The notes below the pieces were generated by a model. That model did no database searches, was not told the DNA's origin, and saw only the letters and a program-made list of their open reading frames with translations. From Euglena gracilis (lineage: Eukaryota): a DNA stretch of 20,000 nucleotides. Below are positions 1 to 18,724 of this stretch, piece after piece. The stretch is taken from positions 10,984,670 to 11,004,669 of the forward strand of contig CP154954.1 in assembly GCA_039621445.1 (NCBI GenBank). Reading direction: 5' to 3'. The position numbers and the translations under genes were made by a program. Position 1 is the first letter of the stretch. The number at the start of each line of letters is the position of its first letter.

Positions 1-3
1 TAG

Positions 4-1962
4 CGGGTTTCACACCGAAATTCGGCAGTATGCATTGCCGATGATGCGCCAAATGTTCCAGAGTCGCGTTTTCATAACCCGGCTCTGGGTGCACATGCAC
101 CACCACCACCCGTGTCCCGAGTGTCACAATCCGCGATTCCGCGAATTGTGCCACCATTGGCCTTGTCCACAACCCAAACCCAGTTTTCGGATGAATCTCC
201 CATTACGGGAACCGAATTCGCGGAAAACATGGCGATTCTGCCAAGTCTCCACCAAGAAATCCATCATTCCATGCTTGTGCGTGGAATGAGCCAAACCCGT
301 ACACCGGGAGTGGGTCACATGTTGCATGCGCGACATACCCCCACACCGGAGAGTCTCCCTATTACGGGTGACCAACAGGGTTTGCGACCGGATTTCCGGT
401 ACCAGGATTCACCTTCACCAGAAATTTCGCGATTCCGACAAGAATCCGGAAAGGATACGCTTGGTGCTCGAGCGTACCCAGGCCCGAATCCACGGAATAC
501 CACCGAGGGCCAACGGGTTTTTCAGAAAGACTTCAAGGGCACCATCGCAATCGCGAACAAGGTGAAACCCCAGTGGGATGGTGATCCAACCACATGGAGA
601 CAGTTTTTCCGGGACTAGGAGTACTACTGGGCATTGAAAGGGACAACCCAGGACACAAACCCGGAGGTGATCAAGATGGAATTCATCGATTGCCTCCCTA
701 GGGATGAAAAGGAGCGCGCGCGACAACTCGTCATTCGCTACCGCGTTTCCTTTGATGACCTGGTGGAGCAATATGCTTCCACCAGTTCAAGTTTGGTCGC
801 TAGGATTACCCTGGAGACCAAGTGGCGGCAATGCGCCCCACCCGATCGCAAGTGGAAGTCCATTGACCTTTGGTATGCCAAATGGTTAGGACTTGCCGCT
901 GAAGTGGATGAACTCAGTGAAAAGCAAATGCGCGAACAGTTCGACGCTGTTCTCATGCATTTCACGCCTAGCCTCATCAAGGATATCCATCGTGAGGAGT
1001 TGGCGGGTAATGCAATGACTCTTGACCAACGCTGGAACTACGTTTCCAAGCAATTGAAGCTATCACAGCTTCTTGGTCAGATTCAATCCGCGTATACCGC
1101 ACACCCAACCGCTGGATTACCGGCTGGTTCGGTGAACGCAGTGCAAAAATCACCGGTTCCACCCGCTTCACCCACCACGGGATCGAAAACGCGATAGCCG
1201 CGTTCTTCGGACCAAGCCACGGATAAAGTGTGCTTTTTGTGCAACAAATCGGGACATATGTCTCGGGAATGTCCTAATCCTGAAGCGCGAAAGCGTATTC
1301 AGAGTCCGCGAGGCTCGACCTCATCACGAGGTTCGGGTTCCTCCGCGTTTTCACGCCAATCGGGCAATTCACGGTCATCGGGTCCCCGTTCCGGTGGTAT
1401 TAGCCCCCGGATCCCGTTCCGCGATGAGCGGAAACACGGTACCCCTCGGGGTAGGTCACCCGATGCCCCGGCCAAGACGCGTGATTCTCATCGCGAGACA
1501 TCGCGATCGCGTTCGCGAAGCGGATCATCTTCTTCGCGATCCTCATCGGGAAAACCCCGATACACCGGTCATGGTCGACGGGACACCCGGTCACCACGAC
1601 GGTCTGACGGGAAATCGGGAAACCGATCCCCCCGTTACCAAGAATCGCGACCCAAATCTCGGTGTTCGCTTTGTGGATCGAGTGATCACCACTCATCCAA
1701 ATGTCCGCGTTCTCGTTCTCCCCGCCCTGGCCAACGTCATCGCGGTATGAATCGCGGTGACAAGGGTCACTCCTCCAACCGCCATAAAGTCGGTTTCAAG
1801 ATATCTTGTTTGGAGGATGACACCCCGGCTTCGGGCAGGGAGGGGGATGAGACCACGGATACCGATTTCGACGAGGCCCGCATGGCGGTGCGCACGTTGA
1901 AATCCGTTTATACCTCTAAAAGGCCCATAGCCGGCTATTCGGCCGGTTCGGACCTGGAGTAG
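4..1962 (+). pseudogene. gag: Gag with two CCHC zinc knuckles, interrupted by in-frame stops; true start probably upstream of the window
   Basis: ORFs 112-618, 634-1197 and 1228-1962 share frame +1, which is open from base 4 and broken only by TAG at 616 and 1195. Gag-like WDGDPTTWRQFFRD*EYYW. CX2CX4HX4C knuckles CFLCNKSGHMSREC (1231-1272) and CSLCGSSDHHSSKC (1663-1704). Confidence 0.85.
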
Positions 1963-2045
1963 GGGAGCCCGAGGTCCGAGGGCACGGACCTCTGGGCTGA
2001 TGAACAGATGGAGGTAGGACCTGATCAACCCTGCCCCCCCTGCCC
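1960..2045 (+). promoter_or_regulatory. Candidate gag-pol stop-codon readthrough signal (UAG plus stem-loop/pseudoknot)
   Basis: TAG 1960-1962, GGG spacer, then AGCCC-GAGGTCCG (1966-1978) pairing with CGGACCTC-T-GGGCT (1985-1998). Loop GGGCA is complementary to TGCCC at 2032-2036 or 2041-2045. pol continues in the same frame. Confidence 0.6.
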
Positions 2046-2199
2046 ATCTGCCTTTCTGGTCGGTACCCGGAAAATTTTCGGGTCCCCCACCCCCCACTCC
2101 AACTTTCCGCTCGGAATGTTGTGCAAAGTAGGAAAGGGTTCATGGGAAAGCTGGCAAGAAAATGTATTTTCGCCAGGCCCTTCACTTTGCTTACCCCCC

Positions 2200-2559
2200 A
2201 TGGAACTTTTGGTCCAAGCGGAAATCAAAATACAAAATTTTTGTGCAAAAGTCAAAATTCTCATTGACACTGGTTGTCGCATTGCACTACTTTTTCGGTT
2301 TGGGTTGATACCAACCCCCCTCTTGGTGAAAGCCAAGAAGCCGATCAAAATTACGACGGCTGACAACACCCCTATGTGCGGTGGTGACTTGGGATGCTTT
2401 TTGGACATTGTCCTACCCCTCATCCCCAAGCACCACTCACACCCCCCCCAACCGCAAAATTTTCCGGATACCTGGGGATATGAATCCGGAATCCATGGTT
2501 CTGACGTAATTCTGGGATACCCCTTTTTACGTCAGCACCGGCTGGTAGTGGATTGCCAC
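2200..2559 (+). other. Retropepsin aspartic protease domain
   Basis: ILIDTGC (DTG at 2266-2274), flap-like ITTADN, and C-terminal DVILGYPFL (2503-2529). Confidence 0.9.
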
Positions 2560-3408
2560 TCCCACGGTTTGCGCACATCACCATTCTCCTCATTGCCCCC
2601 CAAACCCTCATCACCTGTGGCGTCAACCGCGATAGCCACCAATTTTTCCACACCGTTTTCGAAAACTTTCACCCCGTTACCAACCACACCAACCAACGTT
2701 TTCCACACCGGGTGTACCGAGAAAGTTCACCCCCTGCCCATTGACACACCAACGTCCGTTCCCCATGAGGCAGGGCAAGCGAGTAGCGGTACCCCCCTCG
2801 TTCCACTGGGTTACAAGACGAAAGCTCAAAGGCCTGAAGTTATAACGGTGTCGAGTAGTCGCCCAGCTGCACTAATACCCCGTTTTCCACCAGATGTATC
2901 GCTTTCAGATACATCTGTATACCCCCCAGCAGCTTCAAAAGCGCATCCCAACTTTTACACACACCCCCACCAGACCAACATGCGCGACCAGGACCACTAC
3001 TCCGACACTACCTTCCAATGTGTGCACTGAAGGAGAATTTCCGCCCAGCCAGATTTCGATTGTGGATGTCTAGTCCAAACACCAACACTAATCCCGATTT
3101 CGCGTAACCATACACTTGGTTGCGGATCGCAATGCGCGACCGTACATCAAGTGCTCCAACAACGAGGTATTGCCTTGTTGTTTGGGACCGCGAAATCCGT
3201 GTCACACACCTCCCCCACCTCCATCTGGCATGATATGGACTGGGTATGTACCCATCCAACCCATCAACCCTTGGGAATGCCCCTTGGGAGTGTGGATGAC
3301 ACACCCTTGACCTATGTTTGCGGATCCCTGAATTGCGTTACCGCTCTTCAACCCGCGAACCAGGTCGACACCTACGCGATGCGCGTATGGAACGCATTTA
3401 ATTTTGGT

Positions 3409-3813
3409 CAATACCGTATTTTGGAGGAATGGTTCTCCAAAATCGCGGCTTTGGCTGATTCCTTCGATTTGCCGTTGGAAATTGATGCGTTCTCATCAAA
3501 AGCGCATGCGCGCTTGTCGCGATATTGGTCGCGACATACCAACGCATTCCGTAAAATTTGGGGTGATACGGTGCTATGGATGCACCCTCCCCCAAAACTT
3601 ATTTCGGATGTGGTGGAGAAAATCCTCCGCGATGAAGCGCGAGGAGCTCTCTTCATACTGGTCAATCCGAATGCGGATTGGTTTCACCAACTATCCTATG
3701 TGTGTTTTCATTGGTGGGATTTACCCGCTGATGTACCACTATTTGAGGATTTTTGTGGTATATTATTACCACCTGTCAAAGAAATCATTTTTCGCGTTTG
3801 TTTCTTCGACGCA
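3409..3813 (+). other. DIRS/phage Dam-like N6-adenine DNA methyltransferase domain within Pol
   Basis: IDAFSSKAHARLSRYWS...NAFRKIW...LWMHPPPKLISDVVEKILRDEARGALFILVNPNADWFHQL follows the pattern I recognise from DIRS MT domains (IDLFAS..N.....F.S...DAF...W.....x-P-P..LI..V+.K+..E....IL+.P.W....WF..L). Motif IV equivalent HPPP at 3583-3594. Confidence 0.8.
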
Positions 3814-4014
3814 TTCGGAATATCCGATTTGCGTGTGCCAAGATACCTTGGTACGGATGGGGATGCCACACCCTCAACGCAGATTTCTGCGGTCATTGAG
3901 AGTGCGGACCAACATCCCAAGTCTTCTGATTATTGTTCGCGAATTGCTCGCGAATTCCATGGTGTACTGGATAACCCAGTTTACGCCTGCGACATCGACC
4001 CCGCGATTCGCGGT

Positions 4015-4970
4015 CCGTTCGGTGTTTGCAAAATCGAGCTCAAGGATGGCGCTAAACCTATGCACCGGAAATTCTTCCGTTGCTCGGGTGAATGCGAACA
4101 GGCTCTCAACGAGATGATTGAGAAGCTCATCCAGCGGAAGTGGATTATCCCTTCCAAGAGCGAGTGGACATCACAAGCTTTTGTGGTGCCCAAACCCGCT
4201 GACCAGTCTGGTCAGAAGAAGTGGAGACTGGTGCTGGATTACCGGTACCTGAACTCCCAAACAAAGGATGACCCCTTCCCGTTACCGCTGATCGAGGATT
4301 TGATCACAAAACAATCGGATAACCGGTTGTGGTCAATCTTTGATCTGGAAGACGGTTTCCATCAGATGCATTTGCATCCTGATTCGCAACCGTACACGGC
4401 ATTCGTGACATCCAAGGGTGTGTACCAATGGACGGTACTCCCCATGGGTGTTAAGAATGGCCCAGCCATGTTTCAACGCATGATCCAGTGGGTTTTGCGC
4501 GATTTACCGTTTGCTATGGTGTACATCGATGATGTACTGGTGGGAACCCAACCGCCATCCGCGAAATCGGGCGAGGATATCCTCGACCCGCATTATCGCG
4601 ATGTGCGCGCGGTATTATCCGCGTTCTAAAAGCATGTGCTTTTTGTGAAGGGTTCCAAAATGCACCTGTTTCGCAAAATTATTAAGTTTTGCGGACACAT
4701 CCTGAGCAACGGGCAGCGTAAAGCCGCACGCAGTAAGATGGAGGCCATTAAGAAATGGACTCCTGAGGTCATTAAGACCTTAACGCATTTAAAGGGATTT
4801 TTGGGATTAGCCCAGTACTACGCGATTTACATGAAAGATTTCGCGAAAATCGCGGTACCCCTAACCCGACAACTCAAAAATCGGACACCCGATAACGCAA
4901 AAGTCATTTGGGATGACCAAATGCGCGAGGCCTTGAATAAAATCAAGGACTTGCTCCTCGAGAACGTGGT
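4015..4970 (+). other. Ty3/Gypsy reverse transcriptase domain (with thumb/connection)
   Basis: WRLVLDYRYLN, FPLPLIEDL, FDLEDGFHQM, TAFVT, LPMGVKNGPAMFQR, YIDD (4522-4533), KFCGHIL, LKGFLGLAQYY. One in-frame TAA at 4627. Confidence 0.97.
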
Positions 4971-4998
4971 TCTCGATATCGCGGATCCATACAAACCG

Positions 4999-5465
4999 TA
5001 TGTCCTGGAGGTCGACAGCAGCGATTACGCTGTTGGCGGGGTTCTTAGCCAGCATAATGCGGCGAATGAACTCCGACCTGTGGCTTTCTTTAGCAGGAAG
5101 CTACAGGGCGACAACGGGAAGCGTTCACGGATTATCAGCTCTGCTGCAGAAAGCAGTCCGCAATTCCGCGCCCGAGTAGCTGCGCAAGGGAGGCCGACAA
5201 GGGATAGGACAGGGTTAAATGGGCATTCGCGAAAAGGAGAACTATGCCATTGTTGTTAATTCTCAGAAAGAAAGTCGCAGGGATAGCCAGCCAGCCTGGC
5301 CAGATACTGCGTGGTGGCGGATCCCATGGAGCCTTCACACTGGTTCCCGAGGACCTGAACAAGGCCATGTCATCAGTGGGCAGAAGATGCCGATAGCATG
5401 AGTTCTTGAGCCAGTTTAACCTGGTGGTAGTTTATACCCCAGGTCATACGCAAAAAGTTGCCCCC
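4999..5465 (+). other. RNase H domain, frame-disrupted
   Basis: LEVDSSDYAVGGVLSQ (D at 5014), RPVAFFSRKL, out-of-frame REKENYAIV and R*HEFLSQFNLVVVYTPG..QKVA. The usual ADALSR motif appears deleted at ~5462. Confidence 0.85.
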
Positions 5466-5701
5466 TGGTATTATCCTGGGAACCCGGATGAGGGTGATGC
5501 GACTTTTCATGGCAGCCATGAGGCTGACCAGTTCGCACGTCGATCCGACGCTGCGGACAACATGCTCGATTCACTACCGGTTTCCCGGGTGTATCGCAGC
5601 ATCGCCATTTCACCATTGCGTGGAAGGCGCCGGCGTGGACGCACTGCCGGACCCCGTCGCATTACGCGTACGGAAACTCCTACCCCCCTATTTTTCCGCG
5701 A

Positions 5702-6961
5702 ATGGGTTATTCGCGTGACCCTATATATAGTACCATTGTGAATAGACGTAGTAATGGTGAATCCATAGAGAGTTACTCTCTATCACCATTGCGGCTTATT
5801 TTCCGGAATGATTCTGGTTATAAATATTGTATACCCCAAGACCTGGTTGATGATGTGATTTTGAGCTATCACAACCATGGTCACCCTGGGGCCCCCAAAC
5901 TTCTTTCACTAGTGGGTCGCAGATATTGCACAACCCTGAGTGAAAAAGAATTATATTCGCGCTGTTTGCGAATTTCGCAACGGTGCCAAAATTGTCAGGC
6001 TGTAAAACCGCGCAGAGGTACCCCCCCTGGTACGATGGACTTTTTCCCCGTACCACCTGACATTTTTACGTCCCTCTGCATGGATTTTCTCGAACTTGAA
6101 CCTTGCAAAGGATCAGATGACAAAATTTACGATTACGTTTTTGTTGTCGTCTGTCGGCTGAGTGGGTACATAGTAGCCATTCCATGCCGGAAAGCAGGGT
6201 TGACAGCCCAAATTTTGGCATCCATATTCCTGGAGAAATGCATCTGCTTAATGGGTTTACCGAACGAAATCGTGAGTGATCAAGATCACTTGATCTCTTC
6301 GCGGTTTTTCACAACTTTGTGCGGTTTACTCGGCATTGAGCAGCATTTTTCCATTATATACCGCCCGAAAGGCAATGGTAGGGCCGAGGCAGCCGTGAAA
6401 TCCGTTGTCAATATGCTTCGCCTTTCACTGGCTGACTCGGGTAAGAATTGGTTATCCGTTCTTCATTGTATTTTTTACATCAATACCTTGCCAGGGTTGG
6501 TATTACCACACTCACCGTACAAAATTGTTTTCGGACGTGACCCTCCGGCCATAGGGGATATCCCCTCGGAGAGACCCGCCCGAAGTAGCGTCAGCTGTGA
6601 AACGTGGTTTGCAGAAGTGGAATCACTCCGCTCTGCAGTCCAATCACGTATCACAGAAATTCATTCCAACAAACGGAAATCGTTTTTGCAGAACTTCAAC
6701 ACACCTGTGTATAGTCCAGGTGACCGCGTGTGGGTACGGAATAACCGCACCCGCATGCAATCTTCCAAGCTAGATCCTCTTTGGCTCGGCCCATGCGAAA
6801 TTTTGGAGAGGTTAGGTAGTAGCGGGCGATATAAAGTTGCCTTGCCCAACGGGATTGAGGACGTCCATATGGACGACTTCAAACCGTACCTAAGCCCCCC
6901 AGACGGAAAAGCTATCCCCTGCCTATATTTCAAGCCCCGTTCCAGATTACCTGAAACGGAC
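5702..6961 (+). other. DDE integrase with HHCC zinc motif and GPY/F-like module
   Basis: HNHGHPG...[36 protein letters not shown]. Confidence 0.95.
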
Positions 6962-7110
6962 GACTTTGTGGTCGATAAGATAATAGACCACAAGGTCGAC
7001 AGGGGTGTGCACTACTGGAAAGTTCGCTGGAAAGGGTATGGGCCAGAGGAGGACACTTGGGAGCCAGCATCCAGTTTTGTTGGATATGTCCAACAGGATT
7101 GGAAGCTGTG
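6962..7110 (+). other. C-terminal chromodomain of integrase
   Basis: [10 protein letters not shown]...[18 protein letters not shown], with all three aromatic-cage positions (F, W, Y) present. Confidence 0.95.
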
Positions 7111-7207
7111 GAACAAGCGCAATAACATAGACATAAACATAAACACTTTCTGAAACGATTTCGTTTTGGAGAATGCGTGTGTTTTATGTGAATGTTTCGC
7201 GTTTATA

Positions 7208-7281
7208 CCCCCCCCTGCACTTCATTATTTCTCTATCTTTCTCGCAGAGTTTTGATTAAGATAGAAGCCTTGCTTTTTCAG
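7208..7281 (+). promoter_or_regulatory. Candidate 3' splice acceptor(s) for the downstream ORF
   Basis: Long pyrimidine tract ending ...tttctctatctttctcgcAG (AG 7246-7247) and a second, ccttgctttttcAG (7280-7281). The first ATG downstream of either is 7349. Confidence 0.55.
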
Positions 7282-7348
7282 TGCTCTCGCACTCAAAGCG
7301 ACTGACAACAAGGTTACCCTTAGTTGTCGTCGTCGTTCGGGTAGCATC

Positions 7349-10300
7349 ATGCTGCCTGGGCGCGGACCTGGACCAGGTCCACCATGGCCGCAGCCTTCTG
7401 GCGCGCCATACCCCCAGTACCCTCAGTATGCTGAGGCCCCGATTCCGGGTGCCCCACATGCTGAGAGGGTTTCAGCCCCGGTATTCGCCGCGGCTACCAG
7501 CAGCCGGTCCGCATATGCGGTACCAGATCCATCTGCCGTCCAGCAGCCGGCACCTCAGCCACCAGCGCAGCGCAGATCGCGCCTGCCCCCGTATGCGGGA
7601 GAGATGATCTTCCGCACTACGGAGACGTTGGAGCGGGCGATGCGTATGTGCGCACACCCCCCAACGGAGCCCTTTATGCAAGCCCTTTGGGATGCATACT
7701 GTGCTCAGTTGTTGGTGGTAGCCAACACCCCTGTGGCTCAGTGGTGTCCCTGCGGTCAAGCCCTGATGACAGGGAGACGGTATTTCTCGTCGGCATCCGA
7801 TTCCGGATTCGAGCCGGGTGAGACTATGATGGACCTGGGCGTGTATGTGCCGCCCATGCTGCAAACGCAGACGCCGGTGGGATCCCACACCGTGCATATG
7901 CGTGAGCACACGCCCCCACCGGTAGGTGAGGCTGTGCATGTCCCACCTGGGATGACGAGAAGTTTTGCTCGCCCGCCCTCGCCGCAGCGAATGCCGCCGC
8001 GCGAGCCGCCAGCGGAGCAATTTGTCTCGCGGTACGCGACGCACGCGGATTCCCCGCGCGGCGCACGCGTGCTCCCAGCCGGACAGTCGGACGTGCCCTC
8101 GGAGGCATACGTCCAACACATGTTCATGCACTGGATGCCACAGGCATCACCGGTCGTCCCTGTCCCGGGCGTTGAGCCACGGCGGCAAGTGGAGCCCATA
8201 GTGGTGGAGGATGAACCTCCCCGCCATGCTGCAACTCGACCGCCCAGTGCACCTCCTGTCCAACCCGGGGATGTCCCGCGTCGGCAGGACGCTCCCTACT
8301 ACCACATGGCACCTCCGGGAACCGAGCAGGATGAGCTTGCTCGGCATTTCCTGCAGGAGCCAGTATTCACGTCTGAAGAGCATCAGGCGAGGTATTACTC
8401 CTCGCTGGCCGCCCTTCAGGGCCGTGGATACACCCCGTACCATCCGTACCAACCGCAGCTGCGGGTGGCGACCCCGGTATTACCCGGTGAGCCCCCGGCA
8501 GGAGCGGCAGGATTACCTGCCACCCTGAAGCGCGATAGGGTTACGGAGAACCTTACCCCACAGCCCAGGCGACCCAGCCCACGGGACGCGGAAGGCGGTG
8601 TGGCAATGCAGGTGGAAGCCAGCCCGGATACCCCGGCTGGGCAACCACCGGCAGTGGCACAGGCAGCGATGAGCCGTCCTGTTGCCGCAATGCCACCGCC
8701 GATCCCTCCGGTATGGAAGGAGCCGCGACCCCCTACGCCGACATCAAGCCCACGCCAGGCTCCTAGCCAGCGCGCAGCCACGCCGTCACCGCGACGTGCA
8801 GCGGAACGGCAAGGTCCCTCCCCAGAGATGGAATGGGAAGGTACCGAACCGCCTCCTGCCGCACCGAGCGCCCGACCCTCTGGTATTCGCCAGACAGGGA
8901 AGGATAAAGGTAAGGCTGAGGGCAAAGTCAAGGGAGAAGGCAAAGGCGTGGCCGGCAAAGGTAAGGCTGAGGGCAAGGGTAAAGGTACAGCCCGTGAGGA
9001 GGAGGAAGAACCAGCAGAAGTCCTCTCGGACTTTGAGCAAATGCTCAGATTCAAGGAGGAGCTGGAGGACGAAGGCTGGCGAATGCAGCATGATTACCAT
9101 GTTGCAGGAAACCGCCCCGTCACCCCTCCGGAAGCAGTCATCGAGGTGGTATTACACCACACCGAGAACAGAGTCAGACAATTCCATTACGGAATTGACC
9201 TGTACGCCTTCGAAGGTGAAGGTGGCAGACCCTTGCTGGATGCCCAGCCGGGTTTCTGGGAACTCTGGTTTTGGCTGGGATACCCCTGCCAGAACTGGGG
9301 TCTCTTCAGCGACTCCACTGGCCGCAGTTACCTGCACCAGTTAGGATTTCGGGACCAGCATGTGTTGGCCCGAAGGCTGAAGGCAATCTTCGACTGTATT
9401 CACACAGTCGGGCCCCTCGGTGTGCAGTGGAAATACTACCCACTGAACCCCGACATCGAACGCCTGATCGAGGTGTTGTGGTGCAACAACCTCCAGGTGT
9501 GGCTGGTGAGCCATTACGGCTCCACCTTCCGCGTTAAGCGCGTTTCCCTGGCTTACCCACAGAGGTATGACCTCTGTTGTAAGTATTGCCGGCAGGAGTT
9601 TCCTGTCGACTTCTGGTGATTCGGCGTACGCGGAAGTCCTCCACCGCCTCGGGATAACCCGGGACTGGAGATGGGACGCCGCATGCTTATGCATGTGTGC
9701 CGCGACGCCCCGGATGTCCAGGGCAAAAGTCGCCGCGTCCATAAGCAGCGTATTTTTATGCTGCAACAGTTCTGGTGGCGAGCCTGAACGACCTATGTCA
9801 TGGAGGTGTATATACATCTCCGTGACCCCCAGGACGATAGGCCTGGTATGGAAAGCTTGCCACCAGACTACGGCGACCCCGTTGAGGGACCTCGTCGTCG
9901 TCGCGTTATCGCCGACCTGCGCCCCAACTGGCACCTGGCCGGGATAGACCTGGAGGAACATTTGAGGCGACAGTTTGGCGGTACCCTCGACAGGAAGGTA
10001 TTCCTCCAGCTGATGAATCACCCGAAGGCCATCCTCGACCTGGGTATGCCGATTCTGGCATGCGTGCAGGAGTTCGAGGACGGGTTTTTCGAGGTCTGGG
10101 AGGACACGCGTTACCGCAGCTTCCTGGGCCCGAACAGGCCTGCCAACGCTTGGGTGCAGCCATCATGGCCACCACCCTGGCCCAACAGCGCCAGTAGCAG
10201 TACGCTGGTCTTTTACAGGCTGGCGGATGCCCAGGGATGCCGATGGCACCCCGACGACCCTCGTTCGCCGGAGGATCTGCGCGCCTTCATCGCCCCAGAG

Positions 10301-12868
10301 GATGAACCTCTGGCGCGAAGGAGACGTGAGGCGTCAGTCGCTTCCACCACTGCGATTCCGCGGCGGGAGGAACGCGACCGCAGCCCCTCCGTCACCATAC
10401 TGGAGGCAGCGCCGCCGTCTCCGACAGGAACGGCTGTATCATTCGTCTCTGCCCCGCGAGCGGCAGGGGAACGATCGGTTTCCCCGGCCCCCGCGACGGC
10501 TCACGTCTGTCCACCGGTAGGTGGAGACCAGGAACTTCCTGAGGAGGAAGGTGAGAACGTGGAGGATATCCTCTACGCTGCTCTGCATGCTCCGGCACAG
10601 CCTAGGCCAGACACAGCACCCGCAGGGGATATACCTGTGGATGCTACGCCTGTTCCAACGGCTGAGCCTCCAGTCGAGGTGACTGGTATGGTCGTCGAGG
10701 ATATCCTCGAAGAACCTGCCAGTCCCACAGCACGCACCTCGTTAGGAGGCCGTGTGCTCGGCGCCGTGGTCACTGGCATTACTGCCGTGGCTGCTGCACT
10801 AACGCCACGAGGTGGAGGCGTAGCATCAAGCTCCGCCGCTGAGGTCGTGGAGACACCAGATGTCGGTGTCCCCACACCTCCGTCTCCGGCAGCAGTGCAA
10901 CCACCATCAGGGGATGAACCCCAGCCGACAGAGACATCTGTCGCACCGGCTACACCGGAGGATCAACCTCCCGTAGCACCTGCGCCAGCGGTTGTGGAGG
11001 ATCAACCTCCTAGACCGGATGTCGAAATGGAAGTGGAAGAAATACCCCCACGACCACCGACACCGCGCAGGGTCCCTGCCGTCCCGAGGACAATGGCAGA
11101 GTTTCTGGGAGTGCCAGCGCCTGTGGAAGCACCGATTCCGGTGACGACCACAGTGCCACGCCTCGTCGGAAAGGATGAACCTGCTCGGCGACGGCCGGCT
11201 GAACAACCCCAGGAACGAGTGCCGACCCCTCGGAGCGTCATGCGCGACCCAGCGGTCAGTATGCCCGCTTCGCCCAGACGGCAAACGTCTACTCCGGCAC
11301 CGTCGGCTCCTGATACCAGGAGTAAGCCGCAGGCGTCACCTCCTGATTCCGGGAGTGCGAAGCCGAAAGGAGGCAAACCGGGTGCTGCACCCTGTAAGCC
11401 CCCTTCCAAAGGCGGTGACGGGAAACCACCACCGAAAGGTGGCGCTGGAGGTCAGACTGGCGGACAGCCGAAAGGCCCTACGACAATGCACGACTATTCG
11501 GCCGTTGCATCGTCCGGGTACGGCCAGAGCAAACCGAAAGGTAAGGCTCGTGGTCGACAGGCCCAGTCTTCCGCCGGATCGACGGATGAGGAGCAGGACG
11601 AACCTGCTTCACCTCCTGTGTCTGCGGATGCCCAGCTCTGGACCCAGGATATCCTGACCAGACTCAGCACCGTCGAAGAGAGGACGAAGAAACTGGCTGC
11701 TATTAGGCACCAGAAAGGGTCACTGAATCGATGGATTCAGCCCCTCTTCGTCCGAGGAGAACCTTTCCACTATGCCCCGGAACATACCTGGACATTCTGG
11801 AACAGGCGCTTACCCAGAGTACTGGCACAGTACTTTGGCGAGGACTGCGTGTTGGATTTCCAGCACGGCACGTCCTTTGCCTGGACGTGCACCGTATGCC
11901 ACCATGTGCGGCATAACCAACCGCTTGTGCATGTGTGCAAGCGGCAGGTGCAACCCTCGTGGTTCCATCACAGGGCATATGTGCCGAACTGTGTGGCGCT
12001 CGTATGTGGCGAGTGCCTGAATGCCTGGAAGCACAGCTTGAACTACTCCTACAGTGAGAATGCTCACGACAGGGATATCCCTGCCTTGTGCATCAACTGT
12101 ATAGGAGGCAAGTTCGTGCAGACTGCTGATGGAGCAGTCACCACCATTGTCCCCCAGCACTGGGAGACACTGGAGAAGTGGAAGAAGGAGTACAAGCAGG
12201 TGGAAGGACGCCTGAAGCACTCCGACTTCAAAAAGGTAGAAAGCTACCGCCACACGGGAATGGCCCGTGACTTCCAGATCGACGCTGGGGCAATGCGCCT
12301 CGCCGTCGAGGAACACGCCAGGGTAAGAATGCCTTACCTCTGGACTGATGGCGACTGGGAGACACAGGTTTACCCCCTGTTCTCCAAGCGTCAGCATGGC
12401 GGATACGCCTTGCCACTGTGGCCTCCTGAAGAACACGACTTGGTGGACTTCAGAGGTTGGTTGGCGGCTGTATTACGGCCCCATACCGCAAGAGCTCGGA
12501 CAGCGAGGTGGATGTATGACATCAACTTCAAGCAGACCCCGGGGATGCCCCCGCAGGTGCCTGCGAATCACCCCCGGATGAATTACATCATCTGGCCGGT
12601 GATGCTGCCCAGAATTTTCTGGGAGCAGCTCCAACGGTATCTTCAGCATCATGCTGAACGTACCAGGGAGAAGCTGCCGGAAAATTGGATCAAGGACTGG
12701 GAGACCCCTTCCTTTGATGTCAACGATCCGGAGCTCAACACCATTCGGAGTGAATCAGCTCCGCCGCGTTCCCCACGCCAACTGGAGTTGGTTGAGGACC
12801 CATTAGGGGACCCCCAACACGACTACTGGCGTGAGGTCCGCGAACGTCCAGCCGATAAAGGCAGGTAA
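7349..12868 (+). pseudogene. Extra ORF of unknown function in the env position (~1839 codons, two in-frame TGA): Pro-rich disordered tracts, Trp/Cys-rich globular blocks, C-terminal 8-Cys zinc finger
   Basis: ORFs 7349-9619 and 9800-12868 are both frame +2. The gap translates FW*FGVRGSPPPPRDNPGLEMGRRMLMHVCRDAPDVQGKSRRVHKQRIFMLQQFWWRA*TTYVM, with stops only at 9617 and 9785. Could alternatively be two separate CDSs. Confidence 0.75.
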
Positions 12869-12902
12869 GGTGTCTGTCAGCGCCAATGCGGCGTCTTTCA
12901 GC

Positions 12903-12985
12903 ACCCTCGTCAGGTATTCGCCTGACACCCTGTTTGGGTATTCGCCCGAACAGCCCCTTTGAAGACCCTTTGCGGTATTCGCCGC
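12903..12985 (+). repeat. Three tandem hairpins with identical TATTCG loop
   Basis: GTCAGG-TATTCG-CCTGAC (12909-12926), CTGTTTGGG-TATTCG-CCCGAACAG (12930-12953), GCGG-TATTCG-CCGC (12972-12985). Each is preceded by or overlaps ACCCT. Confidence 0.85.
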
Positions 12986-13685
12986 TAGTAAGTTCCCACC
13001 GGGATGCTGCCATGTGCAGGATTCCGTGCGCATGCATGCACACCCCTCTCCGCTCTCCCCTCTCGCGGGCGTGCGACACGCAGCGCACAGGGCCGACGGC
13101 CCCTTTTCCTTTCTCTCTCTTTTCTTTTCGGCCGTTTGAGGCCTTAAGGCTGCCAGACAGCACAACTTTTCTGGCCTAAGCCAACCCCCCACTCCTCTCT
13201 ACTTTCCCCCCGCGGCAAATGCTGTCGCCGGCAGTTGGTTTTGTAGAGTAGGATTTCCTTTTGCGTGGTCAGGTTTGACTGGCCATGCGCCCTGCCCAGG
13301 TTTGACTGGTCAGAGGCCCCCTCCTTCCACACCCTCCCCATGGGTTTTCCTGGAATGCCCATGGACCCAACCCCAAGTGCCTTGGGCACACCCAAACTGG
13401 GTGGATGGGTTTGCTTGGCAAGGAAACCTGCCAGCCCCATTTTCCCCAGTGGGCTATAATATACTATACACCCATAAGCCACCGCAAAATAGGTGAAACC
13501 ATTTTGCGCGTTTTGGGCTTTTTGGGTCCCTCCCTTTCCGCCCCCCCCCCCTTTTTGAGTAGACCCTTGTGCGACGGAAAGGGCCCCTGTGGATGCGCCA
13601 GGGTGCACCTCCCACAGACCAGGTCTGTGTCCGAAATCCCTGTGGTCAGAATGCCTGGTCCAAAGGGGAAATCGGGCATAGCCCT

Positions 13686-13695
13686 GGGAGGGGGA
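13686..13695 (+). other. Polypurine tract (plus-strand primer)
   Basis: GGGAGGGGGA, followed by a 2-nt spacer and then TGTAC. Confidence 0.65.
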
Positions 13696-13697
13696 TG

Positions 13698-14002
13698 TGT
13701 ACCAGGCGTATGCTTCTGTCCCCCCCCCGTTGAGGAAGTTAGGATGGAAGCAGATCCTATTAGGATTTCCTAATGGGTGCCCCCTCTCTCTCCACAGGTG
13801 GTATTCTGTTTGTCTTTCCTTTTCTCCGGACCGGACTTGGTTATCCAGTCCGTCCTCCCTGCATTGCTCCGTGCTTTGCTTCTTGGGAAGTGGGAAAAGG
13901 GTTTTCACTGTTACTCTGATTTTCAGTTCCCAAGTAGGTGCGCCAAGGCGAAAGCGAAGGCTTTTGGGAATTGGGAAAGGGGAATTGGGAATCAGACGTA
14001 CA
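13698..14002 (+). repeat. Candidate 3' LTR (305 bp)
   Basis: Starts TGTAC 2 nt after the PPT and ends GTACA (5-bp terminal inverted repeat, TG...CA). Composition becomes AT-rich afterwards. No partner LTR in the window. Confidence 0.6.
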
Positions 14003-16513
14003 CTTGTATACCCGAATCAAAAAAATTCGGCATATTGCCAAAAAGATCATATTGAGGTGTACAACCGCAGAATTGTGCCAGGCTGCTGCCAATTCACAGA
14101 ACAACTGTGGTTGTTGTGGCTTATACCACTTTGAAAAACCGCAAATGAACTTTGAATGCACATAAAAGGATGGAACATTGTTCAAGTGCAGTGAAATTTA
14201 TCACTCTGTACCTTTCAGTACAATCAGAGGCATGATACCTCCAAAAGCAAAGTGTGTGTATGAAAAATTGTGGGTATCCCCATATTGCGCACAAGAAAAA
14301 AGGAACTATCACAAAAAATACACGGAAGTCAACCACTTCTATGATGGTGGTCTGGCAGGCATGTTCTGTGATAAGCGTGAACTCAATCGAGTTTTTTTTT
14401 TCGACAAGTTGGCCATATAGCCGTCACTGCAGTGGGTGGTGGCATATACCACCAAAAATTACTAAAAATCTCTATTTTTTTGCATAATTGCAAAGAAGCA
14501 CTACAACTATGCCTTTTGGCGTTTTACCGTTTGCGGTGAAGCTTTCAACTGAATAATCGACCTGTTGGTCAACAACGCATGCAATCTGTTACAGAGAATA
14601 TGCAGTTTTTCTGCACGCGTTAGGTTCATAAACTACATTTTTGCACCAATTGGTACTACAAGGGCTAGGAAAAGAACAAAAGCACATAGTGCCGATTGTG
14701 AAACAAGCCGATTGGCTTAAGAGCATTGGTACCATATCGGTATGCTACCACTATGTGGTTTTGGACTGTCCCATTAGGACTAACATCTCACCTAGAACGG
14801 TGACACTGCACACAAAAATCTTGTACGGCTATAAGTATTCCGCGTGAAAAATTCTGAAGGAATCTGAAAAATATTCACGTCGTGAGAGAGCCATAGGCTC
14901 AAAAATTGCACCACGATGGTGGAACGTAAGATATTTCGCCGAATAGCGATTATGGATTCATAAATTTCAAACTGGGAGTTGATTCTCCTGCGCACAAACT
15001 TCTCTATGAGAAAAATAACGGTATGTGCACACTTAAGTCATCTTGATCGATGGCCGAGAAAATGCATTGCGGTTCAAGCATTTTAACTGTCCAACAGAAT
15101 TGGGTGGCTATCGCCACAAATGATGCGGTAACGATAAAAGTGTGGATATCACCACTGAAAAATGAAAAATTTGCATAACAACAAATAAATGAAACATTCT
15201 TCGCATTAGAGGTATCCCACAAAAATTATAGTTTTTTGAAATGCAGCGCATACTGCATCACATCACTAGTATAATGAGCTATCCTCGCGTCAACAAAAAA
15301 AAGTTGAAATTGCACATGTACGCATATTGCGCACACGTGGTCAAAATCACATATTGTGACACTGAGTTCAGACCAGTAGGTTACAAACGACAAAAATGCA
15401 TGAGAAACGGGGGAACTGCACAAAACGACTAATCATCAATGAATATGGTGCTGTGACACGCACCATTTGAGGATTCGCTCGGAAATTTTGAACAGATTGC
15501 GAAATATTCGATGAACACGTGGCAATTGATCCGCATTCAGAAAATTTGCGGATGATCTGCACACGGAATCCTAAATGTGGGTCAAAAAAAGCTGGATTTC
15601 ACCATTTCTGAGGTATGGTTCTTATAAACCTTGCAGAATGACACCATTGGTGTTGCAAATGATGACCATTGGGTCCTCCGAATTATATCGGTAAGGGGAT
15701 CCCACTGAATGAAGCGGGGGGGGGGGGCAAGAATGCCGTTGGTGTGGTAAGCAGGAAAAAATACTGCAAATATGACAAAATCTCATCATTAATGACTATG
15801 CCACTGAGAAATACTGACTTTCATCGGATTTTTAGGGAAATCCCTATCAGGATTTAGGGCAGAAATGCAGATTCTGCGTCGAGAGTTGCATTTTTGTAAC
15901 CAAAAGTGCAACTTTGTTGCATTTTGAGTCATTTAAGACGGAAAATTTGTCAAGTGCACATAGTGCTTGCTGAGAGTGTCCAATTACACTGCATGTTTGC
16001 TTTTGTATAGATTTTGGGATTTGGGTGACTCATAACACCACATCACCCAAAAATATCGCAAAAAACCAAAATACACCTCAAAATACAAGTAAAACATGTC
16101 TATGACATGTTGAACAAACGAAAAATTGCCATTATCAGCATATCGCTTTACATTCCACTCTGGCATAGTGCCTCATGGTGACTTCCATTAGTGATATGAG
16201 TGCCAGAATAGGGAAAAATAACCAAAAAAATTGCAGAAAATAAATGATTTAAATCAAAATTTGCACATAAGTGCTCCTAAAAATCATTCTAGTGAGTCGA
16301 AATGACTCCAAATTGTGGGCTATAGCCCTCTGAACTGTACGAGGCCTTATAGCCCATACAGAAGGGGTAATGGGCAGAATGCTGCCAAAGGTACTAAAAA
16401 ATGGCCATTAGCCAATCTGTTAACCAAAGGTAATTAGCCATCAGAAACGATGTGGGGAACAGTATAGAAGCCTTTCAGGCTGATTTGCAAGTCTGGTACA
16501 CGATCGTACAAGA

Positions 16514-16525
16514 TCCGGCCTAAAA
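16514..16525. repeat. Target-site duplication, left copy
   Basis: TCCGGCCTAAAA matches 18713-18724 at 11/12 positions. Confidence 0.75.
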
Positions 16526-16796
16526 GGACAACTCCCGGTGGTGGGGCGAACCGAATCCACCGACCAGTGGCACAGCCTACTGGATTTGAAGGTCCGCTGG
16601 CGGTTATGATAATTTACAGCTTGGGTATAGGACGGCGGGTGGAAAATGGGCTCGGCCCACCTTCAATACGTTGCGCGAGGATAGAGGGGCGAGGGGGAGC
16701 GGGGAGCTGAAGGGAACGGCAGTGCTGGAGTATAGAGGGGTCGGCGGCAGGGCGGCGGTACGTGGCTTGACGGGGGGAGTGGCGGTGGGTCGTGGT

Positions 16797-16847
16797 TGTG
16801 TGTGTGTGTGTGTGTGTGCTTTGTGGGTTGTTGTTATTGTTGTTGTT
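16797..16847. repeat. (TG)11 microsatellite plus imperfect (GTT)n tract
   Basis: Directly visible: 16797-16818 and ~16827-16847, immediately 3' of the non-LTR ORF stop. Confidence 0.95.
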
Positions 16848-18710
16848 TTATCGGAGAATGTGCTTGGGTTGCAGGAGATGGAAGACTTCGCGTAATAGGG
16901 CGATTGCGACTTTCTGGTAAATATCTGCCTCCTTTAATTCTCGTTCCGCCCCCTGTTGCCAGGACGAGGCGCGTTTCGCCACGCGGCTCAGGGTTTTGGC
17001 TGTCTCGGGCCCCATGCCCGCCCACGTTCCCAGGGCGAAGGGCGTGAAGCCCCAGCCTGCTTGCTGGCATGGGATGTTGTACTTCTGCTTTTTGGCCTCC
17101 TCCCTTCTCTTCAGGAAGGATCTCCACCGTTCGCGGGTGGCAGTGTGTTCAGTCGCCTGCCATCCGTTGCAGACGGTGACATCCAGCGCTGTCGGCTTCC
17201 CGTCAGACCAGCAGTCTAGGAGGAGATCGGCCGGGCGGAGGTGGCTATCTCGGGCCGTTGGCAGGGAAACCTCCTTCTGCACCCGCTGTCCGCTGTTGGA
17301 CAAGGTTTGGAACAGTGCGTCCTGAACAGCGTTGTGGCGGGTGGCAAAGTTATTCCTGCGACAGCAAAGGAGGTGGTCACCTTCCTTGTCCAGGGGCTGG
17401 TTGCATCCCGTGCATGGTTGGCTGACGTCGTTCAGCACCAGGAGACCCAGCCACCACTTCAACCCCAAGGTGTACTCTTCGCTGTAGAAAGTGGTGTGGG
17501 AGTTGTTTGAGGGGGTTGCTGCCATCCAACCATGCCCGAAACCTGTGGCCTGTTCGAGGAGGCGGTTCTTGTCCCGGGGCCGCGCCTGGTCCACCAGGTC
17601 ATCCATCGTCTTCTTGCCCAACTCGTGAGTCCACCACTGGTGCGCTACCTGAGCGTCGGTGACGGACGTGATGGTGGATGCGGCCTTCTCGATTTTGGCG
17701 GCGGCAACCTCCCACGCCGTCTGTGTGGTGTCCGTAGACGCTGGGTGGTCAACTGGGATGCCCAGGACGGTGATGCCTTCCCCTGGGGTCCAAGGGACGA
17801 CTTGCATCCTCTCACAACTCGGCGTACTCCTGGCTCTCGGGCCCCACATGACGCACTTCTGCAGGTTGAGGCCGAGCCCTATTCGATGAGACTCTTGCAT
17901 CAAGAAACGAATGCAGTGCTCAATCCGGTCTGGGGTCCCGACCAGCAAGCCGTCGTCCAAGTACCAGCTGTTCCACAGCAACTGACCATCTTTGGTGATC
18001 TGTTCCAGTAGAGGCTGTAGCGCGAGAGCGAACCCTATGGGGCCCAATGGGCAGCCCTGGTGGGTGCCTCTCTGTGACAGGATCGAGCGACCACCACAGA
18101 ACAAGGGAACGTGCCCACTGTACGCGAATCGCAGAAAATTGAACAAGCTGGGGGTGCGCGTTTCAGCCTCCGTCAGGATCGCCCCTCGGTCCACCGTGTT
18201 GAACGCACTGGAGAAGTCCACCTGGAGAGAAACCCAGGGCGATGTGTCCGCCAGCTGAATGACCAGGTGTTACATACCTAATGCGACGGCCTCAGCCGCG
18301 TTTCGTACCCCAACCCCAACTTGGGTAGGGGCGAGGGTTGCGACCTAGGATCTGGCGTTTGGTGTCTGGAGCAAGGCTTTCCCCACCAAGCGACGGATGG
18401 TTTCCCCAACCGCCACCGGACGTACCCCGTTATCCTTTTTGCGGAGCGGCGTTAGGTTCGCACAGCACCAGGCCGCGGCGTGGTGGGGCGGTAGCTGGCC
18501 GTCCACCAAGGCTTGAGTCAGCAGTGCGAGGGCAGTGATCAGCCTTGCTCCCCGACCTGGTCTCCGCAGGCAGTCTTGGAGGTGGCCTGGTCGCAACCCA
18601 GATGGCGCCGGCGCCGATCCCCGTGGGAAGCGACGGATGGCTTCCTTCAATCTGTCCTCCCAGTCCGGGGTGTGGTTCTCGGGGAAAGGGCGGACGTGAC
18701 GCGGCAGGCG
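16848..18710 (-). pseudogene. RT / zinc finger / restriction-like endonuclease ORF, truncated, two nonsense codons, internal deletion
   Basis: One frame: GSAPAPSGLR, GVRPVAVGETIRRLVGK, QVGVG, VDFSSAFNTVDR, GTHQGCPLGP, YLDD (17952-17963), CTGC-x9-HLLCC, RHNAV, RPADLL..ALDVTV..KKQKY. Stops TAG 18345-18347 and TAA 18270-18272. Confidence 0.92.
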
Positions 18711-18712
18711 AT

Positions 18713-18724
18713 TCTGGCCTAAAA
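18713..18724. repeat. Target-site duplication, right copy
   Basis: TCTGGCCTAAAA lies exactly where the RT reading frame and GC-rich composition end. Confidence 0.75.

Follow-up and report, generated by a model that had tools for sequence, protein, structure and literature searches.

A probable DAM-LTR retrotransposon of Euglena gracilis with a large accessory reading frame and repeated sense-strand hairpins

Dam-like domains have recently been described in Ty3/gypsy-like long terminal repeat (LTR) elements, named DAM-LTRs, many of which also carry chromodomains (Fernandez-Moreno et al., May 2026; bioRxiv 10.64898/2026.05.21.726589). The same preprint describes a Euglena DAM-LTR/DIRS group, with Euglena gracilis among the hosts, and 'EpiLTRs', i.e. 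DAM-LTRs that add a cytosine DNA methyltransferase (DNMT), and it uses the term 'epigenetic toolkits'. It also reports that the tripeptide Asn-Pro-Pro is almost universal in motif IV of DAMs, and that eukaryotic DAMs gave no gain of N6-methyladenine (6mA) on E. coli DNA, a non-duplex substrate being suggested (Fernandez-Moreno et al., 2026). These elements have thus only just been described, and their methyltransferase-like domain is without a demonstrated substrate. Here we analyze a stretch of 20,000 nucleotides of E. gracilis (GenBank assembly GCA_039621445.1, contig CP154954.1, positions 10,984,670 to 11,004,669 of the forward strand), referred to below as the window. The + strand of positions 1-14004 is a single Ty3/gypsy-type retroelement, whose start is truncated by the 5' edge of the window and which carries, besides a Dam-like domain and a chromodomain, a 1,839-codon third open reading frame (ORF3) and a set of RNA-type hairpins.

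Other systems provide points of comparison for these two additions. VANC proteins are anti-silencing proteins of the Arabidopsis VANDAL DNA transposons, and act on duplex-DNA motifs. The 3' untranslated region (UTR) of retroviruses can hold cis-acting RNA elements, such as the constitutive transport element of Mason-Pfizer monkey virus, which are bound by protein and serve to export full-length RNA, and in single-stranded RNA (ssRNA) viruses dispersed packaging-signal hairpins are bound by protein to package the full-length RNA. Among plant Ty3/gypsy elements, the Tat/Ogre/Retand lineages have a long region between pol and the 3' LTR with extra ORFs (PMC11963269). The E. gracilis element shares with the latter, as described in that source, a several-kb extra coding region of unknown function in the same place. 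Unlike these non-chromovirus elements, with which no sequence similarity was found, it combines a conserved Cys/His domain in that region with Dam-like and chromo domains.

A decayed Ty3/gypsy-type element with a Dam-like domain

We read positions 1-14004 as one decayed member of a very abundant family of Ty3/gypsy-type LTR retrotransposons of the DAM-LTR kind, with ORF3 as an integral part and a set of sense-strand hairpins, and assign this reading a probability of about 0.6. The order of domains is gag (with two CCHC knuckles), protease, a weak Dam-like domain, reverse transcriptase (RT), RNase H, integrase, chromodomain, ORF3, a purine tract and an LTR-like end. Pfam matches to zf-CCHC, RVT_1, RT_RNaseH_2, Integrase_H2C2 and rve were found in that order, as expected of Ty3/gypsy, along with a DTG motif at 2260-2277, and the domain expected of chromoviruses is present as a Chromo match (E 3e-10) C-terminal of the integrase, after rve and SH3. 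A first-pass annotation of this DNA had proposed one collinear + strand unit of more than 14 kb comprising gag-pol, a methyltransferase domain, a chromodomain and an extra ORF; the analysis of reading frames and Pfam matches found all of them.

The Dam-like domain, of the N6-adenine methyltransferase family, lies at 3412-3819 on the + strand, flanked by protease and RT, and shares an ORF with RVT_1. Its match to PF05869 in the window is below the cut-off of the family (E 2e-4, 21.5 bits vs 28.1). However weak, the match is considered real because 10 of the 12 aligned relatives match PF05869 at E<=1e-3, the best of them at 5.2e-10. Of 4,498 candidates, 58 are homologous at E<=0.001 to the ORF that joins this domain to the RT, the closest of them with 50-57% identity, and for five of the 58 Dam and RT appear together in one protein in precomputed annotation. 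Motif IV is VLWMHPPP (3571-3594) and has His in place of the usual Asn; in the alignment of 12, this column holds Asn in six sequences, His in four, and Cys and Ala in one each. His was also seen in three relatives of 47-48% identity, and the change may not be private to this decayed copy. It may mean that the Dam-like domain of this lineage is inactive.

The element therefore compares with the described class as follows. It shares with DAM-LTRs, as presented by Fernandez-Moreno et al. (2026), the Ty3/gypsy-like organization, a PF05869 Dam-like domain within the polyprotein, the chromodomain and the host, and also the fact that the Dam match spans only part of the Pfam profile, which the preprint has for eukaryotic DAMs. 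It departs from the norm of the class in that the conserved catalytic Asn-Pro-Pro is replaced by His-Pro-Pro. No DNMT family was matched in Pfam by any ORF at E<=0.01, nor by parts of ORF3 at E<=0.1, and for that reason the element is not an EpiLTR. The 'epigenetic toolkit' of methyltransferase plus chromodomain suggested in the first-pass annotation is thus present as far as both domains are concerned, and what does not hold is its possible novelty, this architecture being already described in the preprint. ORF3 and the hairpin set are additions to it on which the main text of the preprint is silent: the words 'accessory' and 'zinc' do not occur there, and 'hairpin' is used only for protein; the supplementary maps of the preprint may include ORF3. 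A search of full-text literature found no other description of an element with such an ORF3 and hairpins.

The copy is decayed. Frame 1 is open over 1-5257 except for TAG at 616, 1195 and 1960, TGA at 3028 and TAA at 4627; the reading frame is then lost between ~5130 and 5528, with a shift from frame 1 to frame 2, in which two open stretches follow, 5528-7153 and 7265-12868, the second of them interrupted by TGA at 9617 and 9785. This amounts to five in-frame stops and one frameshift in gag-pol, and two TGA codons in ORF3. Contigs of public sequencing runs were compared with the whole window at >=80% likeness, and in most sibling contigs position 617 is G (TGG instead of TAG) and position 4627 is C (CAA instead of TAA). 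The stops are therefore regarded as private decay of this copy, since sibling contigs carry sense codons and all three stop codons occur. A variant genetic code was considered as the source of the in-frame stops and ruled out on the same grounds.

In one DNA run alone, 132,406 contigs match the window, which indicates a very abundant family. Part of 7200-14100 is contained in 20 of the 24 listed runs, 15 of which hold at least half of its words. In run X2 (DNA), 36 contigs share with one contig of run X15 a sequence upstream of position 2, and the element therefore extends past the 5' edge of the window. Unusual placements of RT in E. gracilis have been noted before (Fernandez-Moreno et al., 2026).

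ORF3, its place in the element and its protein family

ORF3 occupies 7349-12868 in frame 2 of the + strand, and comprises 1,839 codons counted from the ATG at 7349, with the two TGA codons indicated above. It is separated from pol by a spacer (7154-7348) in which two acceptor-like sites, each a polypyrimidine stretch followed by CAG, were found at 7236-7247 and 7273-7281. At both ends it is joined to the rest of the element by contigs from other runs: contig 21 of run X18 (2,402 nt), a leaf-litter metatranscriptome RNA library, spans 6679-9092, from the chromodomain through the spacer into ORF3, and contig 8 of run X15 (2,182 nt) spans 11340-13522, from ORF3 into the 3' region. Further X18 contigs cover 9132-9627, 9665-10971 and 11259-12207. 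These bridging contigs, along with one that diverges from the window after 14006, make ORF3 an integral part of the element, in agreement with the proposal of the first-pass annotation that the extra ORF belongs to it.

The predicted protein consists of a proline-rich disordered N-terminal part, a Lys/Gly-rich tract (8897-8926), a middle globular region (~9011-10348), a second disordered part and a C-terminal domain. Proline makes up 14% of the whole, which has long disordered stretches and two Lys/Gly-rich tracts. The C-terminal domain (11606-12748, + strand) is conserved in 11 aligned relatives at 24-40% identity. It includes a Cys/His cluster of the form CxxCH..HxC..CxxxxCxxC..CxNC at 11888-12100, kept in the aligned relatives, and the motif PGMPPQVPANHPRMNYIIWPV at 12539-12601, of which relatives keep PG[ML]PxQxxxNHPxxNxxIWPV. 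The codon corresponding to the TGA at 9785 is Trp in the relative P0072.

Relatives of this protein are scarce. A full HMMER pass with the second half of ORF3 (residues 1-1026) gave only 21 matches at E<=0.001 in 1.84 billion representatives, all of them of 86-506 aa and eleven of them being the relatives aligned over the C-terminal domain, and the contigs that encode relatives of ORF3 are only 573-3,715 nt long. The middle region (P0081) found no match among proteins of 275-875 aa, and one among shorter proteins (P0082). With the alignment of the C-terminal domain, 81 pattern matches were obtained in metagenome contigs and none was confirmed, as was also the case for the 11 viral contigs.

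Within E. gracilis itself, the EukProt protein P0060 (EG_transcript_25142, 230 aa) is 98% identical to residues 567-796 of the 9788-12865 translation, which points to this species or one very close to it as the host, and three further transcript proteins match ORF3 at 40-90% identity. The transcript-encoded proteins P0066 and P0075 are ORF3-like paralogues only 40-42% identical to this copy, and diverged ORF3 lineages therefore coexist in the species. The transcript proteins P0064 and P0074 show ~90% identity over 44-67 residues of a disordered part of ORF3 (~10853-11056); P0074 overlaps P0064 in sequence and has a weak Response_reg match (E 4e-4). The match may be due to exonisation of part of the transposon, or to a transcript that is chimeric.

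Comparison with known domains and structures was negative throughout. ORF3 has no match to a Pfam family or zinc finger, and 12 members of the C-terminal domain set gave nothing below E 0.02. A profile search of the PDB with the C-terminal domain returned only E 0.59 and 0.81. The AlphaFold2 (AF2) model of this domain is of low confidence, with a mean predicted local distance difference test (pLDDT) score of 55.7, and with this weak model no match at E<=0.001 was found in the PDB by Foldseek, and none of 48,161 chains reached Z>=5 in VIA-align (best Z 4.2). The model of the middle region (pLDDT 33.9) was unusable. In the ESM Atlas, ORF3 gave scores of at most 0.82 for RING-like viral clusters, which is noise level, and the middle region gave no usable match. 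A simple hydropathy scan, which is a weak test for signal peptides and membrane anchors, detected no hydrophobic segment at the N-terminus, the sole borderline stretch being one of 19 aa (mean 1.6) within a disordered part; by this same weak test, ORF3 does not have the character of the env gene of errantivirus-like Ty3/gypsy elements.

The description of this frame as a giant zinc-finger accessory ORF was therefore right as to its size, and overstated as to the zinc finger: there is a single conserved Cys/His cluster and no Pfam zinc-finger match, and the term is a reasonable guess for one cluster of 70 residues and nothing more. As far as sequence comparison can tell, ORF3 is a real, conserved and transcribed gene, whose C-terminal domain belongs to a rare uncharacterised family, because there are only two stops in 1,839 codons, the one at 9785 is Trp in P0072, the Cys/His cluster and the C-terminal motif are kept, and paralogues are transcribed.

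Sense-strand hairpins and their possible roles

The word GGTATTCGCC occurs without mismatch at 7480, 8882, 12913, 12937 and 12974, each time on the + strand, and with one mismatch at 1396, while no reverse-complement copy was found in the window. With up to one mismatch, 1.0 matches would be expected, and none of 200 shuffles reached six. All the copies fold as hairpins, with flanks that are complementary yet different in sequence. Two of the exact copies, at 7473-7496 and 8875-8898, are located in ORF3 (26.1 and 24.7 bits with the covariance model), and the other three form a tandem at 12906-12990 (12906-12929, 12930-12953 and 12967-12990) in the 3' UTR, 45-122 nt past the stop of ORF3. The fold of 12869-13010 has a z of -4.08, and none of 200 shuffles folds as well. 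Besides these, which share the invariant apex GGUAUUCGCC, a scan for the loop found hairpins of the same loop type on the + strand in gag (1929-1948, 7-bp stem, loop UAUUCG, 14.2 bits) and within the coding region of the Dam-like domain (3515-3536, 8-bp stem, loop UAUUGG, 18 bits, E 0.016). In total there are at least seven sense-strand hairpins with a UAUU(C/G)G loop, distributed over gag, the Dam-like domain, ORF3 and the 3' UTR, so that the five repeated hairpins recorded in the first-pass annotation can be recovered in full and others added to them.

Covariation was evaluated in an alignment of six copies, i.e. the five exact ones and that at 1396. In the 7-bp helix 90.5% of the cells are paired, compared to only 33-50% in slid controls, and there are 10 double-change cells vs 3.3 +/- 1.6 in shuffles, none of 500 shuffles reaching 10. 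G-U pairs are present in the stems. When the hexaloop TATTNG was considered independently of the apex, an uninterrupted stem of at least 5 bp was found in 5 of 19 sites on the + strand and in 0 of 9 on the - strand, with a background of 237 in 19,950 positions; with stems of at least 4 bp, 6 sites were observed, where 300 mononucleotide shuffles gave 0.16 on average and never more than 3. No Rfam family was matched by the hairpins at gathering scores. The motif is taken to be an RNA-type hairpin of the sense strand more probably than a duplex-DNA word, because it is strand-specific, its flanks covary and its G-U pairs work only on sense RNA.

These data bear on the idea, put forward in the first-pass annotation, of an accessory protein that de-silences the element through a cognate motif. 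What the element has in common with VANC and VANDAL is an accessory protein encoded by a transposon and a short motif repeated in it, and unlike the duplex-DNA motifs on which VANC acts in a DNA transposon, the motif here behaves as a strand-specific RNA-type hairpin. That ORF3 could be a sequence-specific DNA-binding anti-silencing protein, with GGTATTCGCC as its duplex-DNA word, is very unlikely and not favoured: all the copies are on one strand, flanks covary, the G-U pairs of the stems would be A-C mismatches on the other strand, two more hairpins retain the loop but not the GG/CC apex, and ORF3 shows no similarity to any known DNA-binding family by Pfam, PDB profile, Foldseek or VIA-align. 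All this outweighs the presence of motif and ORF3 within one element, a conserved Cys/His cluster with a possible affinity for zinc and nucleic acid, and the mention of VANDAL as a precedent for transposon-encoded epigenetic counter-measures (Fernandez-Moreno et al., 2026). The strand bias and the complementary flanks also speak to a different possibility, namely that the hairpins are relics of local duplication or products of chance with no selected function. Three of them do lie in tandem within 85 nt and a single copy of the element has been seen, but the flanks, unrelated in sequence, are complementary, and hairpin counts are far above those of shuffles and of the opposite strand; this is the least probable of the explanations considered.

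Several observations weigh against the reading of 1-14004 as a DAM-LTR with an integral ORF3 and hairpins. No full sibling or related element was present among the fetched loci, and the conclusions on the hairpins are drawn from one copy. In a comparison of the DAM-RT alignment with metagenome contigs, 2 of 50 were confirmed, L001 (1,709 nt) and L002 (2,012 nt); both are short and cover DAM-RT only, and they show no such hairpin. To this can be added the low confidence of the AF2 model of the C-terminal domain, and the low or undetectable LTR expression reported for E. gracilis (Fernandez-Moreno et al., 2026). The GC content is 0.60-0.62 in ORF3 vs 0.49-0.52 in gag-pol, and in each of the four runs ORF3 has a lower summed contig depth than gag-pol, a measure that does not give copy number. 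The compositional difference, together with a lower CpG observed/expected ratio in ORF3, and the difference in depth, which is weak evidence, would suit the view that ORF3 is a passenger, i.e. a captured host gene or an old nested insertion, amplified along with the element but without a role in its life cycle and unrelated to the hairpins, as would the finding that two E. gracilis transcripts, which encode kinase-like or receiver-like proteins (P0064, P0074), include pieces of ORF3. Such an origin is nevertheless unlikely, given that ORF3 is on the same strand as pol and open over 1,839 codons, with fewer stops than the gag-pol of the same decayed copy, that one hairpin type is common to ORF3, gag, the Dam-like domain and the 3' UTR, and that paralogues of 40-42% identity are transcribed in the same species. 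A deletion form seen in one contig of the DNA run X2 also argues against it: this contig fuses 4806 to 7277, thus losing RNase H, integrase and chromodomain, and runs on into the region just before ORF3, which is kept from there onward.

With the DAM-LTR reading retained for the element as a whole, the role of its two additions can be considered. The hairpins in the RNA of the element could be repeated binding sites for one of its own proteins, either the nucleocapsid or ORF3, and by analogy the bound hairpins might tag full-length RNA for packaging, export or stability. The resemblance to the RNA signals of retroviruses and ssRNA viruses is that a structured RNA with a conserved loop is repeated, dispersed over the genomic RNA and/or placed ahead of the 3' LTR, downstream of the last ORF; no similarity of sequence or in Rfam (0 matches) exists. 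For the translation of ORF3 we propose a subgenomic mRNA that would arise at the polypyrimidine-CAG acceptors of the spacer, plausibly by spliced-leader trans-splicing, a process used extensively by Euglena (Fernandez-Moreno et al., 2026). The Dam-like domain and the chromodomain may interact with 6mA and chromatin, as that preprint proposes for the class.

A further option is that the hairpins are substrates or docking sites of the Dam-like domain, which would methylate the adenine of the loop, either in RNA or in the plus strand of the DNA while single-stranded, as METTL16 does on the repeated hairpins of MAT2A. The loop UAUUCG does contain one invariant A, the absence of 6mA gain in E. coli and the suggestion of a non-duplex substrate would be compatible with it (Fernandez-Moreno et al., 2026), and MAT2A and METTL16 provide a precedent for an N6-adenine methyltransferase with a repeated-hairpin substrate (PMC9850920). 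The MAT2A 3' UTR resembles the present case in having several hairpins with a conserved adenine-containing loop and an N6-adenine methyltransferase in the system; the enzyme family and the loop sequence differ. Considering that motif IV reads HPP and not NPP, so that the domain may be inactive, and that L001 and L002 are devoid of such hairpins, we regard this option as very improbable, slightly more so than a VANC-like function of ORF3.

Somewhat broader is the speculation that the element has a private RNA-recognition system, in which hairpins with UAUUCG loops would tag its own transcripts and either be read by the Cys/His domain of ORF3 or receive, on the loop adenine, a methyl group from the Dam-like domain; we consider this improbable too, less so than the two functions just mentioned and a little more so than a passenger ORF3. 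If it were true, the 'DNA adenine methyltransferase' of DAM-LTRs would act on structured single-stranded nucleic acid and not on duplex DNA, and the negative E. coli assay of the preprint would be explained. Should the parts turn out to be unconnected, what is left would simply be a more complete annotation of a known family. In at least one very abundant lineage of Euglena, the DAM-LTR plan is extended by a large conserved accessory gene, from an almost unsampled protein family, and by dispersed structured RNA signals, and both could be used as experimental handles on how such elements treat their RNA and the epigenome of the host.

Remaining gag-pol features and the 3' neighbourhood

The N-terminal and capsid-like part of gag (1-1197, + strand, frame 1) is open except for the TAG codons at 616 and 1195, exits the window at its 5' end and has no Pfam match. 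It is followed by the nucleocapsid region (1231-1704, + strand), with two CX2CX4HX4C zinc knuckles at 1231-1272 and 1663-1704, the first of them matched by zf-CCHC (E 9e-7) and the second read from the translation. The active-site motif of the protease, LIDTGC (2260-2277, + strand), was likewise recognized in the translation, and falls in the DTG column of the alignment with relatives; the protease region has no Pfam protease match. A Cys-rich motif (..QPDFDCGC..) at 3031-3075, between protease and Dam-like domain, is present in 4 of 11 aligned relatives, where it is preceded by CxxC. RT and the start of RNase H cover 4189-5124 (+ strand; RVT_1 E 2e-23, RT_RNaseH_2 E 2e-19), with YIDD at 4522-4542, the TAA at 4627 and loss of frame after ~5130. 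The integrase, with its HHCC zinc domain, DDE core and SH3 (Integrase_H2C2, rve and SH3_Tf2-1 in Pfam), and the C-terminal chromodomain (6962-7078; residues 480-516 of the 5528-7153 ORF) extend over 5831-7153 on the + strand, up to the pol stop, TGA, at 7151-7153.

At the other end of the element, the purine tract GGGAGGGGGA (13687-13696, + strand) is directly followed by the TG of an LTR-like 3' end, TGTGTAC...GTACAC (13697-14004, + strand), a position that suggests its function as polypurine tract. One contig of run X15 departs from the window sequence after 14006, and the summed contig depth, again not to be taken as a copy number, falls after 14008. Sequence and position of 13687-14004 fit a polypurine tract and an LTR of ~308 bp with short inverted ends, for which, the 5' LTR lying outside the window, we keep the term 'LTR-like'; the tract and LTR-like end proposed in the first-pass annotation are thus present. 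The 12-mer GGGAGGGGGATG, formed by the polypurine tract and the first LTR bases (13686-13697), is repeated exactly in gag, at 1838-1849; this second copy could be an internal polypurine tract, although by our estimate an exact pair of 12-mers is expected by chance in 20 kb.

Downstream of the element, 16009-16675 is another highly repeated stretch, and many contigs stop at 16536 (153 loose ends in the DNA run). An insertion of 2.2 kb (16527-18715) is located between 9-bp direct repeats, GGCCTAAAA, at 16518-16526 and 18716-18724, and its - strand encodes a reverse transcriptase (ORF 16848-18269, RVT_1 E 5e-12). In two runs there are contigs in which 16513 is joined to 18713, and which thus represent the site without the insertion.

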